Positions 396-52,598 of a stretch of 60,081 bases of DNA are shown here, one piece after another (within the stretch, counting starts at the first letter, position 1; every line of letters begins with the position of its first letter). The stretch covers positions 1 through 60,081 of the forward strand of contig JAZRUF010000107.1 of assembly GCA_045652405.1 (NCBI GenBank), read 5' to 3'. Under the pieces are notes generated by a model. The model was given only the letters and a program-made list of their open reading frames with translations, had not been told where the DNA came from and did no database searches. The translations under genes were made by a program, and so were the position numbers. Source of the DNA: Eubacteriales bacterium (GTDB lineage Bacteria > Bacillota > Clostridia > Oscillospirales > JAAYXM01).

Positions 396-1076
396 ATGAA
401 AGAAAAAGCACTTACCCCAAGGCTTATGACGGTCGCAACGCTTGTCCCCAAATGTCAAACCTGTGCAGACATCGGCTGCGACCATGCGCAAGTTTCTATA
501 TGGCTTGCGCGTCAGGATAAAGTAAATAGAATAATTGCGTCGGATGTCAACGAAGGACCGCTCAGCCGCGCAAAAAGCGCAGTGCGTGCGGCAGACCTTG
601 AGGGGCGAATAAACTGCGTGCTGACCAACGGTCTTGAGGGTATTGAGCCACAGGATTGCGTGATAATCGCAGGTATGGGCGGTGACCTTATAGCGGATAT
701 TCTGAGGCGTGCTGAATGGACCAAAAGCGGAGAGAGGACACTGATTCTTCAACCCATGACCGCCGCATACCGTCTGCGCGAATTTTTGCTCGAAAATGGG
801 TACAGTATGGTAAAAGAAACCTATGCGGCCGAAAAAGAAAAAATATATGCGATTATATGTGCAAAACCCGGAATGCAAGAATACCGGGATATTTCAGAGC
901 TGTACATTAGCCGGGCGGGAGAGGCGGATGCAGGTGGATGTGAATACGCAAAATGCGTCATAAAAAAACTTGAGTGTGAGCTCCACGGTCTGCTTCAGGC
1001 GGAAGACCCCAGCCAAAAGGATATAGAGCATCGCCGTCTGGCAATAGAGCTTTTACAAAAGCGCTTTAAAATATAA
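396..1076 (+). CDS. trmK: tRNA (adenine22-N1)-methyltransferase TrmK family
   Basis: SAM-MTase motif DIGCDHA, IIAGMGG and LILQP, with the usual helical C-terminal domain. It sits next to a Nif3 gene, as in many Firmicutes. Confidence 0.8.
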   Translation: MKEKALTPRLMTVATLVPKCQTCADIGCDHAQVSIWLARQDKVNRIIASDVNEGPLSRAKSAVRAADLEGRINCVLTNGLEGIEPQDCVIIAGMGGDLIADILRRAEWTKSGERTLILQPMTAAYRLREFLLENGYSMVKETYAAEKEKIYAIICAKPGMQEYRDISELYISRAGEADAGGCEYAKCVIKKLECELHGLLQAEDPSQKDIEHRRLAIELLQKRFKI

Positions 1077-37938: not shown

Positions 37939-37967
37939 TTGACAATCAGCTCGGAAATCTCTATAAT
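37939..37967 (+). promoter_or_regulatory. consensus sigmaA promoter TTGACA-17-TATAAT
   Basis: An exact hexamer pair lies about 20 nt upstream of tRNA-Pro. Confidence 0.8.
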
Positions 37968-37986: not shown

Positions 37987-38063
37987 CGGGTTGTGGCTCA
38001 GTTTGGTAGAGCGCTGCGTTCGGGACGCAGAGGCCGCAGGTTCAAATCCTGTCAACCCGACCA
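37987..38063 (+). tRNA. tRNA-Pro (anticodon CGG), CCA encoded
   Basis: The cloverleaf folds by hand. Acceptor is CGGGTTG/CAACCCG, anticodon arm is CTGCG-ttCGGga-CGCAG, and T-arm is GCAGG-ttcaaat-CCTGT. Confidence 0.95.
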
Positions 38064-38067
38064 AAAT

Positions 38068-38103
38068 AAAGGAATCTCGAAAACCGAGGTTCCTTTGTTT
38101 TTT
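38068..38103 (+). terminator. intrinsic terminator of tRNA-Pro
   Basis: AAAGGAATCTCG-aaaac-CGAGGTTCCTTT followed by GTTTTTT. Confidence 0.85.
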
Positions 38104-38108
38104 GTTTA

Positions 38109-38270
38109 GATTGGGAGGATTTGAACCTTAAGAAGGCATGCGGAGAAAAGCAAAATACTCCGGTGGAGTGTTTTGCCGACGCATGGTGCGAAGACGGGTA
38201 CTGAGCGGTTAAACCGCTCGGTCGTCAAGCAAATAAGACGCGAAGCGGCTGTATCCTGTCAACCCGACCA
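38109..38270 (+). ncRNA. tRNA-3'-end-linked structured element, copy 1 (unclassified candidate ncRNA or miniature element)
   Basis: 5' arm 38116-38128 is the reverse complement of the tRNA-Pro T-arm (13/13). Hairpin A is 38151-38175 and the TGGTGCG box is 38184-38190. The bulged hairpin B GACG-GGT-ACTG...CGGT-CGTC is 38193-38226, and hairpin C (GAA loop) is 38236-38250. The tail 38253-38270 is identical to the last 18 nt of tRNA-Pro. Confidence 0.55.
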
Positions 38271-38274
38271 AAAT

Positions 38275-38310
38275 AAAGGAATCTCGTAAAACGAGGTTCC
38301 TTTGTTTTTT
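38275..38310 (+). terminator. intrinsic terminator (near-duplicate of 38068-38103)
   Basis: It has the same stem as the tRNA-Pro terminator, with 2 substitutions at the loop edge, followed by a T-tract. Confidence 0.8.
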
Positions 38311-38315
38311 GTTTA

Positions 38316-38338
38316 GATTGGGAGGATTTGAACCTTAA
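38316..38338 (+). repeat. truncated second copy of the element 5' arm
   Basis: GATTGGGAGGATTTGAACCTTAA repeats 38109-38131 exactly and then diverges. It belongs to an 86-bp direct repeat (38046-38131 versus 38253-38338). Confidence 0.85.
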
Positions 38339-40088: not shown

Positions 40089-40165
40089 GCGCTCGTAGCT
40101 CAGCTGGATAGAGTGACTGGCTACGAACCAGTAGGTCAGGGGTTCGAGTCCCTTCGGGCGCGCCA
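40089..40165 (+). tRNA. tRNA-Arg (anticodon ACG), CCA encoded
   Basis: Acceptor is GCGCTCG/CGGGCGC, anticodon arm is ACTGG-ctACGaa-CCAGT, and T-arm is AGGGG-ttcgagt-CCCTT. Confidence 0.95.
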
Positions 40166-40170
40166 GAAAA

Positions 40171-40197
40171 AGCATCGACTATAGTCGGTGCTGTTTT
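40171..40197 (+). terminator. intrinsic terminator of tRNA-Arg
   Basis: AGCATCGAC-tata-GTCGGTGCT followed by GTTTTGTTTTG. Confidence 0.8.
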
Positions 40198-40216: not shown

Positions 40217-40378
40217 AGGAAAGGGACTCGAACCCTGAGAGGGCACGAACCGTGAAGCAAAACAGTCCGGTGGACTGTTTTGTAGGTGAGTGGTGCGCAG
40301 ACGGGTACTGAAAGGCAAAGCCTTTCGGTCGTCAAGCAGTGCGGTTGCAAAGCAATCGTTGTCCCTTCGGGCGCGCCA
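40217..40378 (+). ncRNA. tRNA-3'-end-linked structured element, copy 2
   Basis: 5' arm 40221-40235 is the reverse complement of the tRNA-Arg T-arm (15/15). Hairpin A is 40258-40282, the TGGTGCG box is 40291-40297 and hairpin B is 40300-40333. Hairpin C (AAA loop) is 40342-40358. The tail 40361-40378 is identical to the last 18 nt of tRNA-Arg. Confidence 0.55.
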
Positions 40379-40384
40379 CAAAAA

Positions 40385-40412
40385 AGCATCGACGATAGTC
40401 GGTGCTTTTTTT
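40385..40412 (+). terminator. intrinsic terminator (near-duplicate of 40171-40197)
   Basis: AGCATCGAC-gata-GTCGGTGCT followed by TTTTTTT. Confidence 0.8.
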
Positions 40413-47092: not shown

Positions 47093-47179
47093 GCGGATAT
47101 GGCGGAATCGGCAGACGCGCTAGATTCAGGTTCTAGTCGGGGCAACTCGGTGGAGGTTCAAGTCCTCTTATCCGCACCA
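47093..47179 (+). tRNA. tRNA-Leu (anticodon CAG), type II, CCA encoded
   Basis: Acceptor is GCGGATA/TATCCGC, anticodon arm is CTAGA-ttCAGgt-TCTAG. It has a long variable arm and the T-arm GGAGG-ttcaagt-CCTCT. Confidence 0.95.
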
Positions 47180-47181
47180 AA

Positions 47182-47214
47182 AGCTACCCATTGAGGGTAG
47201 CTTTTATTTTTTTT
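47182..47214 (+). terminator. intrinsic terminator of tRNA-Leu(CAG)
   Basis: AGCTACCC-attga-GGGTAGCT followed by TTTTATTTTTTTT. Confidence 0.85.
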
Positions 47215-47218
47215 CTTT

Positions 47219-47375
47219 AAAAGAGGACTTGAATCTTAAGAAGGCAACGAGCGTACAAAAAACGATTCATAATCGTTTTTAGCGAAGTTGGTGCGCAGAC
47301 GGGTACTGAAAGGCGCTGCCTTTAGGTCGTCAAGCAAGTAAGACGCGAAGCGACTGTGTCCTCTTATTCGCACCA
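47219..47375 (+). ncRNA. tRNA-3'-end-linked structured element, copy 3
   Basis: 5' arm 47221-47236 is the reverse complement of the tRNA-Leu T-arm (15/16). Hairpin A, at 47258-47280, has a completely different stem sequence from the other copies. The TGGTGCG box is 47289-47295, hairpin B is 47298-47331 and hairpin C (GAA loop) is 47341-47355. The tail 47358-47375 matches 17/18 of the tRNA-Leu(CAG) 3' end. Confidence 0.55.
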
Positions 47376-47380
47376 AAAAC

Positions 47381-47413
47381 GATAAGGTTCTAAAAGAATC
47401 TTGTCTTTTTTTA
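47381..47413 (+). terminator. intrinsic terminator (unrelated in sequence to 47182-47214)
   Basis: GATAAGGTTC-taaaa-GAATCTTGTC (2 G.U pairs) followed by TTTTTTT. Confidence 0.7.
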
Positions 47414-52258: not shown

Positions 52259-52287
52259 TTGACAAATACGATAAAAACAGATATAAT
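52259..52287 (+). promoter_or_regulatory. consensus sigmaA promoter TTGACA-17-TATAAT
   Basis: Exact hexamers lie about 30 nt upstream of tRNA-Leu(GAG). Confidence 0.8.
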
Positions 52288-52318: not shown

Positions 52319-52402
52319 GCGAGTGTGCTGGAACTGGCAGACAGGCACGTTTGAGGGGCGTGTGCTTATGGCGTACGGGTTCAAGTCCCGTCACTCGCAC
52401 CA
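52319..52402 (+). tRNA. tRNA-Leu (anticodon GAG), type II, CCA encoded
   Basis: Acceptor is GCGAGTG/CACTCGC, anticodon arm is CACGT-ttGAGgg-GCGTG. It has a long variable arm and the T-arm ACGGG-ttcaagt-CCCGT. Confidence 0.9.
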
Positions 52403-52450: not shown

Positions 52451-52598
52451 AGAAGGGACTTGAAGCCTAAGAGGGTTTTTGCGTAAAACAAAACAGTCCG
52501 GTGGACTGTTTTGTAGCAAAAAGGTGCGAAGACGGGTACTGCAAAGCGGTCGTCGAGCAAATAGTATGCGAAGCATACGTGTCCCGTCACTCGCACCA
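52451..52598 (+). ncRNA. tRNA-3'-end-linked structured element, copy 4
   Basis: 5' arm 52455-52464 is the reverse complement of the T-loop and T-stem of tRNA-Leu(GAG) (10/10, with partial matches beyond). Hairpin A is 52489-52513 and the GGTGCGA box is 52523-52529. Hairpin B, at 52531-52554, is minimal (ACTGC-aaa-GCGGT). Hairpin C (GAA loop) is 52564-52578. The tail 52581-52598 is identical to the last 18 nt of the tRNA. Confidence 0.55.

Follow-up and report, generated by a model that had tools for sequence, protein, structure and literature searches.

All four tRNA genes of the window (the whole analysed stretch of 60,081 nucleotides, from a Eubacteriales bacterium) are followed by a structured RNA element of about 160 bases, which ends in a copy of the 3' end of that same tRNA. 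The copy, here called the tail, comprises the last 18 nucleotides, tRNA positions 59-76, and its start at position 59, next to A58, is real and general, as it is found at 73 loci and also behind tmRNA genes. This tail forms the 3' arm of the element, whose structured RNA is on the plus strand, and it is copied from DNA, or kept identical to DNA, and not taken from mature tRNA. We tentatively read these elements as mobile ones, which multiply at tRNA gene ends, and weigh this reading below against a host small-RNA family and several weaker explanations.

Elements and tails in the window

The coordinates are collected in Table 1. The four tail positions given in an earlier note on this DNA all proved right, and the reverse complement that it had quoted, TGGTGCGAATAAGAGGAC, matches the tail of copy 3. 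The tails are exact in copies 1, 2 and 4, and the tail behind tRNA-Leu(CAG) carries a single C-to-T change (tattcgc vs. tatccgc). The recurrence of four 18-mers, each about 190-210 nt downstream of its own tRNA, is far beyond chance (estimated at about 4^-18 per site), and the shared core motif GGTGCGMAGACGGGTACTG occurs four times in the window against 0.01 expected occurrences. As had been claimed, the identity extends beyond CCA in copies 1, 2 and 4, over 68 nt, about 46 nt (a few of them mismatched) and 43 nt, respectively; in copy 3 it reaches only through AAA. Behind tail 1, terminator T2 and the partial second antisense T-arm look like the remnant of a second unit, or like a duplication into one. 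The idea that the partial second antisense arm has a mechanistic end point was rejected, since its ends lie scattered between -12 and +24 relative to the T-loop complement.

Table 1. Positions of the tRNA genes, elements, tails and associated features in the window
Feature	Positions	Strand	Remarks
TrmK gene	396-1076		m1A22 methyltransferase
Promoter of tRNA-Pro(CGG)	37939-37967		perfect sigma-70 consensus, upstream of the gene
tRNA-Pro(CGG)	37987-38063	+	source of positions 59-76 in tail 1
Terminator T1 of tRNA-Pro	38063-38101	+	between the tRNA-Pro gene and element 1
Element 1 body	38114-38252	+	antisense T-arm ggagg-atttgaa-cctt (38114-38129), then hairpins P1-P5, conserved GGTGCGAAGACGGGTACTG...CGGTCGTCAAGCA
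Tail 1	38253-38270	+	exact tRNA-Pro positions 59-76
Terminator T2 and partial second antisense T-arm	38270-38337	+	T2 is a near-copy of T1; partial arm at 38320-38337
tRNA-Arg(ACG)	40089-40165	+	source of tail 2; T1 at 40171-40192
Element 2 body	40221-40360	+	antisense T-arm aaggg-actcgaa-ccct (40221-40236), then core
Tail 2	40361-40378	+	exact tRNA-Arg positions 59-76; then T2 (40380-40411), similar to T1 (40171-40192)
tRNA-Leu(CAG)	47093-47179	+	source of tail 3; T1 at 47179-47205
Element 3 body	47222-47357	+	antisense T-arm agagg-acttgaa-tctt (47222-47237), then 'type A' core
Tail 3	47358-47375	+	tRNA-Leu(CAG) positions 59-76, one mismatch; next terminator (47381-47405) unlike T1
Promoter of tRNA-Leu(GAG)	52259-52287		perfect consensus, upstream of the gene
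tRNA-Leu(GAG)	52319-52402	+	source of tail 4
Element 4 body	52453-52580	+	antisense T-arm aaggg-acttgaa-gcct (52453-52468); core with short P4 hairpin
Tail 4	52581-52598	+	exact tRNA-Leu(GAG) positions 59-76; then 43-nt copy of T1

Structure of the RNA

The elements are 160-210 nt long, contain no ORF and follow one two-arm plan in several core families. In its 5' arm each element is antisense to its own neighbouring tRNA, over the T-loop and some of the T-stem (about positions 52-65), and its 3' arm repeats the neighbouring gene in sense from position 59 to the 3' end, so that pairing of the two arms over positions 59-65 leaves the acceptor strand and CCA as an 11-nt single-stranded end. Standard pairs occupy 91.9% of cells; in shuffles the figure is 79.2%, and sliding the partners lowers it to 33-49%. 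P1, P2 and P4 show compensatory changes, in L066 and L094 GACG/CGTC becomes GTCG/CGAC, and one U.G pair is invariant; because the tRNA-sense strand carries this pair, that strand is the folded one, and the strand complementary to the tRNA 3' end is the non-folding strand.

The 5' arm is closer in its changes to the tRNA than to the tail. Its complement of N59-N60 matches the neighbouring tRNA in 96% of loci, compared with 36% for other tRNAs. Regarded as inverted repeats, the arms measure 7 bp (25 bp in L105a) and derive from the target, not from the element. P4 is the most conserved domain, and it can be missing with the arms kept (at the tRNA-Thr of L092 and in L024).

Three other structural interpretations were rejected. 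ARAGORN finds no tRNA-like gene on the minus strand, and the U.G pairs place the structure on the plus strand; a T-box-like UGGN/NCCA pairing shows no covariation with the discriminator base in the alignment as inspected by eye; and the geometry of P2 and P4 is unsuitable for a kink-turn. Rfam 15 gave no match to the element at gathering or E-value thresholds in the window, nor at gathering thresholds in 14 loci, the matches obtained there being tRNA, rRNA, riboswitch and Gut-1 only, none of them on an element. A literature search found no description of such tRNA-tail elements.

The boundary at positions 58/59

For the larger sample, 117 loci were retrieved by a pattern built from the element core, giving 127 pattern matches including the window. 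A same-strand tRNA lies at most 450 nt upstream in 88 of the 127, mostly about 120-130 nt from the core. Loci L029 and L059 (Puia) and L035 (Arthrobacter) are chance pattern matches inside coding DNA.

In 73 loci from other gut Clostridia genomes, the identity between element and tRNA is 0.10-0.41 at positions 51-58 (0.11-0.27 at 54-58), and it rises from 0.11 at position 58 to 0.89 at 59, 0.97 at 60 and 0.99-1.0 at 61-76. The earlier note had proposed to collect homologues and see whether the start of identity is scattered; it can be seen that it is fixed at 58/59. The commonest identity length is 18 nt (57 loci); lengths of 16, 17 and 19 result from chance matching or from a first base that is mismatched, and a length of 15 from tRNA genes without encoded CCA. 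The fixed boundary spans at least 12 amino-acid identities in these 73 loci, and tmRNA genes have the identical boundary. In other core families it lies anywhere in positions 54 to 59. The base equivalent to A58, which the note had described as T in every element, is indeed T in the four window copies (TGT/AT, GTT/GT, TGT/GT and CGT/GT, with the slash at the boundary), but not in the larger sample, where it is T in 31 loci, C in 30, A in 8 and G in 4. A separate cut at 55/56 for the subclass with 21-nt identity was rejected, as those elements merely end in a T-loop-like CGA or CAA.

At 0.89, position 59 is the least conserved of the tail, as might be seen if the boundary were passed on by homology, and equally if an enzyme made the cut. 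The 58/59 boundary may be a recombination or insertion junction, or it may reflect a functional requirement.

Genomic setting

In gut Oscillospirales the elements share the orientation of the tRNA and come after the tRNA or tmRNA gene that closes a transcription unit. Of 97 terminal tRNA genes, 90 have a tail copy behind them; of 36 internal genes, none has one. Perfect consensus promoters stand upstream of tRNA-Pro(CGG) and tRNA-Leu(GAG) (Table 1), and no promoter was found inside the window elements. The element is located behind a terminator, and after its closing stem come another terminator and unrelated genes. Mostly there is one element per locus. In 39 of 74 loci the terminator is part of the identity, and in the other 35 the duplication is just 18 nt; the tail has diverged by 1.0%, compared with 4.2% for the neighbouring duplicated terminator.

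No reverse transcriptase, transposase or recombinase is present among the 25 most-matched of 77 Pfam families obtained with the 49 window proteins, which are housekeeping families only. All-against-all clustering of 669 ORFs from the 117 loci gave no recurrent mobility protein near the elements, the recurring clusters being AraC-like regulators, transporters and housekeeping genes only. A pattern scan of IMG/VR returned 0 matches, and BLAST against phages and plasmids found no element.

Spread and variation

One subfamily of cores occurs at many tRNAs, and one tRNA bears different core subfamilies in different genomes. The 'type A' core is found at 88-94% identity beside Ser, Lys, Gln, Arg, Glu, Trp, Pro and Leu tRNAs of different genomes, and L069 and L097, from one genome, have cores that are 91% identical and arms that match their own tRNAs. 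Most informative is a pair from one MAG: L092 (tRNA-Leu) and L098 (tRNA-Pro) have in common a 99%-identical unit that starts directly after CCA and is flanked on both sides, in each locus, by tails of the locus's own tRNA type; in L098 the terminator between the recipient-type tails is of donor type. We infer the putative insertion junction and the 18-bp duplication mainly from this pair, which could also be explained by gene conversion between elements already present at both loci.

Tandem arrays and shortened remnants exist, and within-genome bursts of near-identical copies are rare. In the orthologous loci L028 and L030 the tail follows a substitution in the tRNA. The orthologous tRNA-Arg locus of L119 is empty, and so are other terminal tRNAs. 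Empty tRNA-Arg(ACG) and tRNA-Leu(TAG) loci were reached through CorC and GlnA homologues (an exact look-up of the window's CorC-like protein had given no match), and since their downstream flanks differ, none of these homologue loci forms a filled/empty pair with matching flanks, from which the exact insertion junction could be read. In some loci islands of 0.4-3 kb and a prophage separate the tRNA from the element, a large serine recombinase adjoins the element in L005 (which we count as an unrelated island), and attR remnants of the classical kind, starting at the anticodon loop, are found at the same tRNAs.

Mobile element or host RNA

The explanation that we prefer, although we would put it somewhat short of even, is a non-autonomous, site-specific selfish element at tRNA gene ends, which duplicates positions 59-76 on insertion. 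The fixed boundary at many tRNA types speaks for it, together with the L092/L098 and L069/L097 pairs, the spread of the 'type A' core, the tandem arrays, the two-arm plan common to several core families and the patchy presence. The RNA structure on the plus strand, a 5' arm that tracks the neighbouring tRNA and a tail copied from the gene would also be expected of it. The restriction to terminal genes and the contrast between perfect tRNA promoters and elements with none of their own point the same way.

In such a scheme, the element would be transcribed by read-through from the strong tRNA promoter, and its 5' end would be released by tRNA 3' processing. Pairing of the arms over 59-65 would close a multi-helix scaffold and leave UYGAA (Y = U or C) and the acceptor strand with CCA single-stranded; these two stretches would be complementary to opposite strands of the tRNA gene. 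With the aid of a factor assumed to be encoded elsewhere, the element would then be inserted or copied directly 3' of the gene, duplicating 59-76. The 58/59 boundary would be a junction set by the insertion mechanism, and not a stop of reverse transcription, and would also be the place where the tail ceases to overlap the antisense arm. A bolder form of this idea, which we consider rather unlikely as it stands, is a guide-like RNA that reads both target strands: the antisense arm would base-pair with the T-arm's sense strand, the sense tail would do so with the antisense strand over 59-76, and an enzyme encoded in trans would insert or copy the element precisely at tRNA or tmRNA gene ends, both arms being rewritten to fit every new target. 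If true, this would be an RNA-guided self-retargeting mobile system, distinct from TnpB, IscB, CRISPR-associated transposons and IS110.

Several observations sit less well with a mobile element. No transposase, reverse transcriptase or recombinase is linked to it in the 117 loci or among the 25 most-matched Pfam families of the window, so its partner is assumed; bursts of near-identical copies are rare; the boundaries of the other core families range from 54 to 59; and the conservation of the core across genomes, as well as that of the tail over the terminator, fits selection for a host function equally.

Such a host function is possible too, though we hold it with more doubt than the mobile element: the elements would be host small-RNA genes, each dedicated to its cognate tRNA or tmRNA, the family having spread by duplication and gene conversion, with selection maintaining the fit of both arms, the antisense T-loop one and the sense 3' one, to the tRNA. 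Processing, quality control, a decoy or feedback on read-through transcripts are among the possible roles. The high occupancy (4 of 4 tRNA genes in the window, and the 90 of 97 terminal ones), the strongly conserved core that covaries across genera, the tail that is better conserved than the duplicated terminator beside it and follows the tRNA substitution in L028/L030, and the 5' arm, which is truer to the tRNA than to the tail, all agree with it, as do the lack of a nearby mobility gene and the mostly single copy per locus. Against these stand the patchy presence at the same tRNA in related genomes, the swapping of subfamilies among tRNAs and genomes, the tandem arrays and remnants, the dispensability of the conserved P4 while the arms stay, and the position of the element behind a terminator without a promoter of its own; additionally, a host RNA offers no mechanism for matched copies at more than 20 different tRNA genes.

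Integrative elements, retroelements and duplication

Direct repeats of the 3' part of a tRNA around an insert, which reportedly were described by Williams in 2002 as the hallmark of tRNA-gene integration, also flank the elements, and one could regard these as miniature or decayed integrative elements whose integrase acts in trans, comparable to cis-mobilisable elements that keep att sites and have lost the integrase; the tail would be attR and the boundary a crossover in the T-loop. The islands, the prophage, the serine recombinase of L005 and the anticodon-loop attR remnants at the same tRNAs belong to this picture. We find it quite unlikely all the same. A tyrosine integrase would need identity in its overlap, and identity at T-loop positions 54-58 is only 0.11-0.27; a single reciprocal crossover cannot yield L098, because both of its tails are of recipient type and the terminator between them is of donor type; one integrase would have to serve more than 20 tRNA sequences; no integrase was found in or near the 117 loci except in unrelated islands; and covariation that includes G.U pairs indicates RNA, not arms bound by a protein.

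The earlier note had likened the tail to the primer-binding site of an LTR retroelement, with its 18 nt arising from a reverse transcriptase halted at modified A58, and had added that the identity looks genomic. The sharp, structure-defined boundary and this caveat stood, and the analogy did not. Retroelement relics, whether by way of a primer-binding site or of Mauriceville-type template switching with a halt at m1A58, would account for a window of exactly 18 nt (59 to 76) and for an opposite-strand tail that reads TGG and then the sequence complementary to the acceptor and T-stem strand; moreover, TGGTGCGAAGACGGGTAC, the best conserved motif of the core, is the reverse complement of a tRNA-Leu-like tail (15/18 against tRNA-Leu(GAG)). 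But where the tRNA gene has no encoded CCA, the tail lacks it too in five of six cases (L034, L036, L037, L045 and L049), as do the type-2 tails of CCA-less tRNA-Ser genes, so that the tail is a copy of the gene and not of the finished tRNA. By this we judge the relic reading largely refuted, and hence very improbable; the exception, L087, has CCA in the tail and not in the gene. The identity through the terminator in about half of the loci, the same boundary at tmRNA genes and a structured strand that is the sense strand argue against it as well. A reverse transcriptase, which the note had suggested looking for, is seen neither among the 25 most-matched window families nor among the ORF clusters of the 117 loci, and there were no phage or plasmid matches; of m1A methyltransferases, only TrmK, specific for m1A22, is seen in the 60 kb of the window (Table 1).

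Chance similarity, or a generic local segmental duplication of the tRNA 3' flank, which the note had named as a possible refutation and which the terminator copied in about half of the loci might suggest, can be dismissed almost entirely, because 35 loci share only the 18 nt and the left boundary is identical in 73, and a conserved, covarying core lies between the repeats.

Significance

If the elements are mobile, they would represent a new way for a tiny non-coding element to choose a safe, conserved target, renewing at each move its two arms copied from the target gene, and an enzyme able to read RNAs of this kind would attract interest for programmable DNA insertion. If they are host RNAs, they would be the first small-RNA family with one member per tRNA gene, matched to the T-loop and the acceptor end, and would hint that abundant gut Clostridia survey or control their tRNAs at a level not recognised so far. 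Either way, they would account for a large class of partial tRNA repeats, which island-finding tools could misread as att sites, and they give a clear rule that is testable in culture, namely the last tRNA of an operon and a boundary at position 59.

Comparison with known systems

In LTR retroelements, whose plus-strand copying of the primer stops at m1A58, the 18 nt of the primer-binding site are complementary to a tRNA 3' end; they cover the same tRNA window of 59-76, and on the opposite strand the tails are formally complementary to the tRNA 3' end. Unlike such a site, the elements have a sense copy on the folded strand with CCA as in the gene, use tmRNA, always lie beside the gene that is copied and have neither LTRs nor a reverse transcriptase found with them. 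A closing stem recalls retron ncRNA, in which an a1/a2 stem lies beside the branching G, but no reverse transcriptase follows downstream in the window. Set beside MITEs, which have terminal inverted repeats of their own and a short target duplication of constant length, the elements have inverted-repeat arms that derive from the target, and a duplication of 18 nt in 35 loci and more in 39.

Islands and prophages in tRNA and tmRNA genes likewise insert between an intact gene and a direct repeat of its 3' part that starts in the T-loop, and their integration sites are hot spots that accumulate several elements. The present insert is about 160-210 nt, without integrase or identity in the T-loop overlap; it contains covarying RNA helices and an extra antisense T-arm, and L098 is not one reciprocal crossover. 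Cas1 spacer integration at a leader-proximal site, and casposons at tRNA 3' ends with their 14-15-bp duplication, are comparable in the long duplication (18 bp here), in the tRNA 3' target and in arrays that seem to grow beside the tRNA, with older, shortened units further off; the elements have no target-independent terminal inverted repeats and no Cas1, and their unit is a folded RNA gene. The free 3' acceptor strand with NCCA resembles RNase P external guide sequences, and this is a resemblance only; no target is apparent beyond the tRNA's own 5' strand.

TnpB omega RNAs of IS200/IS605 and ORF-less PATEs also join a scaffold of about 130-150 nt to a 3' segment of 16-20 nt dictated by the target, and in the elements the conserved T-loop sequence TTCRA directly precedes the matched target on its 5' side, at the place expected of a target-adjacent motif. 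They differ in that there is no TnpA or TnpB near the 117 loci and no Rfam or sequence similarity, the target gene is intact with a second copy of the segment (59-76 twice), a 5' antisense arm is present and a terminator follows the 'guide'. The bridge RNA (seekRNA) of IS110/IS1111 carries its guides in internal loops, with a second loop for the donor and an adjacent DEDD recombinase, whereas the target-matched segments of the elements are terminal arms with no recombinase adjacent; in both, two short segments match opposite target strands around a common centre, which in the elements are the antisense arm at about 52-65 and the sense arm at 59-76, with 59-65 in common.

Tail copies in the window and the 58/59 boundary

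The four copies in the window belong to a new family: plus-strand structured elements associated with the 3' ends of terminal tRNA and tmRNA genes, each with two arms that are specified by the neighbouring gene. All four tRNA genes of the window lie on the plus strand (ARAGORN), and each is followed, in this order, by a terminator, a shared sequence and the tail, i.e., the copy of tRNA positions 59-76. Within the shared sequence GGTGCGMAGACGGGTACTG is the most conserved part; the window contains it exactly four times, with an expectation of 0.01. The promoter of each window tRNA is strong, two being perfect TTGACA-17-TATAAT, and since no promoter was found directly upstream of the element in the window copies, the element can be made only by read-through of the first terminator.

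Coordinates of features in the window and at homologous loci (L-numbers, loci from other genomes)
Feature	Position	Strand	Remark
TrmK (tRNA m1A22 methyltransferase)	396-1076		sole tRNA methyltransferase seen in window
Promoter, tRNA-Pro	37939-37967		sigma-70 consensus, 12/12
tRNA-Pro(CGG)	37987-38063	+	ARAGORN
Core motif TGGTGCGAAGACGGGTAC	38185-38202		equivalents at 40292, 47290, 52523
Tail, copy 1	38253-38270		exact repeat
Partial second antisense arm, Pro element	38320-38337		after second terminator
tRNA-Arg(ACG)	40089-40165	+	ARAGORN
Tail, copy 2	40361-40378		exact repeat
tRNA-Leu(CAG)	47093-47179	+	ARAGORN
Tail, copy 3	47358-47375		one C-to-T change
Promoter, tRNA-Leu(GAG)	52259-52287		sigma-70 consensus, 12/12
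tRNA-Leu(GAG)	52319-52402	+	ARAGORN
Tail, copy 4	52581-52598		exact repeat
Second-arm remnant, relative of Pro element	L118:3815-3845
L105 copy a	L105:1684-1855	-	perfect 25-nt antisense arm
5'-truncated element	L110:1560-1780		starts within P3
Gut-1 RNA motif (RF01706)	L071:1121-1196

The earlier note had described each tail as identical to the final 18 nt of the upstream tRNA; this is correct for copies 1, 2 and 4, while copy 3 repeats the same stretch inexactly. Its other readings of the window stand: the tail starts at tRNA position 59, two bases 5' of the T-stem 3' strand, a T lies directly 5' of it in all four copies, and in copies 1, 2 and 4, unlike copy 3, identity extends beyond the tail to the terminator. 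The sharp boundary also holds in a larger sample, where per-position identity to the tRNA over 73 listed loci is 0.10-0.41 at positions 51-58 (0.11 at position 58), 0.89 at position 59, 0.97 at position 60 and 0.99-1.0 at positions 61-76, with perfect tails in 61 of the 73. tmRNA tails start at the base equivalent to tRNA position 59 as well; the boundary is thus fixed and not scattered. In other core families it varies from position 54 to 59.

Six tRNA genes among the listed loci have no encoded CCA, and in five of these (L034, L036, L037, L045, L049; the exception is L087) the tail likewise lacks CCA and continues like the flank of the gene. In two of the five, L034 and L049, the terminator after the gene differs from that after the tail, which speaks against a single long duplication as the whole account. 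Type-2 elements behind CCA-less tRNA-Ser genes behave in the same way. The tail therefore derives from the gene, as a copy of it or of its primary transcript, and not from the finished tRNA.

Homologous loci and genomic context

Homologues were collected with a pattern based on the core of the four window copies (AGACGGGTACTG, then GGTCGTCRAGC after a gap of 3-30), using one genome per species, which yielded at least 117 loci biased towards conserved cores. Almost all listed loci come from MAGs of animal and human guts labelled Oscillospiraceae, Acutalibacteraceae, Eubacteriales or "Clostridia"; the pattern had no match in IMG/VR, and three matches in coding DNA of other phyla were set aside as chance. 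A same-strand tRNA lies at most 450 nt upstream in 88 of the 127 pattern matches listed (window included), at ~120-130 nt from the core in most of the 88, and the tRNAs upstream of listed elements are Thr, Arg, Ala, Ser, Pro, Leu, Glu, Gln, Lys, Trp, His and Met. The remaining listed matches are at contig ends, lie behind tmRNA genes (L047, L072) or behind tRNA fragments that stem from the integration of other elements, or have an island between them and the tRNA. Among terminal tRNAs of the at least 117 loci and the window, 81 have a type-1 element (the family of the window's copies), 9 have another family with a tail copy and 7 have neither, and none of the 36 operon-internal tRNAs in the listed loci and the window has a tail copy.

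At the listed loci the elements have no coding partner in cis. ORF clustering over the listed loci found no recurrent mobility gene near them, and the window protein families shown (best 25 of 77) are ordinary housekeeping ones, including TrmK, GlnA, RelA/SpoT, NFACT and YceG.

Structure of the element and agreement with the neighbouring gene

The element begins with an antisense T-arm copy, S3c-N60'N59'-TYGAA-S5c, in which TYGAA complements T-loop positions 54-58, and S3c and S5c complement the 3' and 5' strands of the T-stem, respectively. S5c and a T-stem 5'-strand copy together form hairpin P1. P2, with a tandem G.A motif, encloses P3, an AAAAC...GTTTT hairpin whose usual loop is CCGGUGG or UGAUA; after P3, UGC pairs with GCA, and a GACG:CGUC pairing, a GGU bulge and an ACUG:CGGU pairing run on into P4. 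P5 is a variable hairpin whose loop is frequently GAA; between it and the tail lie two to four bases. A helix between the beginning of the antisense arm and tail bases 1-7 (N59, N60 and the T-stem 3' strand) closes the structure as a whole. Two stretches stay single-stranded: UYGAA in the antisense arm, and the acceptor 3' strand with NCCA (11 nt).

In the alignment of 70 elements used for the structure tests (A2), standard pairing is found in 91.9% of cells over 30 pairs, compared with 79.2% when shuffled and 33-49% when partners are slid, with both-sided changes in 18 pairs; diverged copies have GTCG/CGAC in place of GACG/CGTC. The pyrimidine opposite R57 covaries with the P1-loop purine (C-G in 40 sequences, U-A in 25). 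The U.G pair in ACUG:CGGU is invariant (70/70), and since the opposite strand would have a C-A mismatch there, it is the plus strand that folds, in the same sense as the tRNA. On the opposite strand the most conserved core motif reads GTACCCGTCTTCGCACCA, which in our reading resembles an 18-nt tRNA tail (15/18 against tRNA-Leu(GAG), with statistics that are not secure), and from this likeness the core may have been built from an older antisense tail.

The 5'-arm complement of N59-N60 agrees with the neighbour tRNA in 96% of listed loci, compared with 36% for other tRNAs, and the arm also agrees at R57 and the first three T-stem bases. In the acceptor part there is no such agreement except in L105a, where the arm is complementary to the tRNA-Pro 3' end over 25 nt without a mismatch, TGG included, so that tRNA end, terminator and arm form one long palindrome. 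In L012, L017, L060 and L107 the first tail base mismatches the tRNA, yet the 5' arm agrees with the tRNA, and in the orthologous Gln loci L028/L030 the tail reproduces a substitution at tRNA position 72.

Signs of spread, variants and remnants

L092 (tRNA-Leu GAG) and L098 (tRNA-Pro GGG), two contigs of one MAG, share a 99% identical unit of terminator, spacer, antisense arm and core that begins immediately 3' of CCA. In L098 the gene 3' end and the tail are both Pro-type, with three differences from Leu, and are followed by unrelated native flank, which rules out a single reciprocal crossover. The pair fits an insertion behind position 76 that duplicated 59-76, and is also compatible with gene conversion between elements resident at the two loci, for which the tails would supply the homology. 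L069 (Leu) and L097 (Arg), which come from one genome, have cores 91% identical from TTGAA onward; their terminators, outer antisense-arm halves and tails differ, each agreeing with its own tRNA. The "type A" core, a subfamily that includes window copy 3, keeps 88-94% identity beside eight tRNA identities in different genomes, and the subfamily at one tRNA varies between genomes.

Tandem arrays are present at L011, L076, L091, L105 and L109. Several other core families are laid out likewise, from antisense arm to tail, usually with the CCGGUGG hairpin loop in common. A second, longer family (..GCCGCCGGTGGCGG..GATGAAGG..GGGCACCGC..), without a match in Rfam, also follows this plan, after or replacing the type-1 unit (L011, L016, L021, L022, L036, L037, L045); at L037 its antisense part spans tRNA-Lys positions 9-68, nearly the whole tRNA. 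Miniatures of 80-140 nt (L024, L111, L092 at tRNA-Thr, second unit of L069) keep the antisense arm, the CCGGUGG hairpin, the last hairpin and the tail, and lack the GACGGGTACTG domain.

The Pro element of the window and its close relative L118 retain a partial second antisense arm, a few bases longer in L118. Across the listed loci such remnants end between -12 and +24 nt relative to the T-loop complement and none ends just past +24 nt; seven listed loci that extend further than 30 nt were scored as tandem units. The truncated element of L110 has an Arg(CCG)-type tail and terminator, no tRNA, and an adjoining ORF which we take to be TnpV-like. In the same MAG the intact tRNA-Arg(CCG) locus L097 breaks off 14 nt into the second terminator, and a transposon probably disrupted an array here.

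At L119 an orthologous, sequence-identical tRNA-Arg(ACG) adjoins a CorC homologue (84% amino-acid identity) and the element is absent; further terminal tRNAs are also empty, and no filled/empty pair with matching flanks was found. The two terminators flanking the element core are alike in 39 listed loci and unrelated in 35, and where alike they diverge by 4.2%, compared with 1.0% between tail and tRNA.

Interpretation

The reading that we rank first, still tentatively, is a non-autonomous element targeting tRNA ends. Its RNA would arise by read-through, be released by tRNA 3' processing and present two unpaired stretches complementary to opposite strands of the gene. Given these stretches and a 7-bp closing helix equal to the gene's 59-65 duplex sequence, the RNA could invade both gene strands, and if a hypothetical enzyme cut where the tail-DNA hybrid ends, at 58/59 on the bottom and 76/77 on the top strand, the 18-bp duplication would result.

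The main rival, which we consider possible but rather doubtful, is a host RNA, one per tRNA, whose match selection and gene conversion would uphold. In its favour are the high occupancy, the strongly conserved core and the additional conservation seen in the tail; patchy presence, subfamily turnover, and arrays and remnants agree with it less well. That the elements are remnants of integrase att sites is improbable in our judgement. The headline of the earlier note, a tail resembling a retroelement primer-binding site with its boundary set by a reverse-transcription stop at m1A58, is not supported: the CCA-less tails, the tmRNA boundary, the sense-strand structure and the lack of any reverse transcriptase in the window protein families shown (best 25 of 77 Pfam) or in ORFs near the listed loci make such an origin very unlikely. 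TrmK (m1A22) differs from the m1A58 enzyme that the earlier note asked about. Simple duplication hardly deserves credence.

Other elements at tRNA ends

Since the Gut-1 RNA motif (function unknown), made of runs of "short hairpin + GTGAAAT/GCTAAAT" units, lies directly behind tRNA or element terminators (in L071, in L038 on the upstream side of the element, and following tRNA-Tyr in L066 and L092), it shares tRNA-end neighbourhoods with the elements. L008 and L105, which come from different genomes and have different tRNA-Pro genes, share a module GTCGAGnGCCTCGACACGCA...GCGTA... that abuts the last tail at its CCA; it may be another element inserting at tRNA ends. Islands of 0.4-3 kb, ending in a conserved GCATCTAAAYYGTTCKGCTYTKCCA and then a terminator, separate tRNA and terminator from the element in L027, L095, L071, L065 and L038. 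The L005 element has the ORF of a large serine recombinase (530 aa) running straight into it. In L033, L039, L050, L054, L055 and L076 the upstream tRNA is a 3' part only, from the anticodon loop, which is the attR side of a classical island in the same tRNA.
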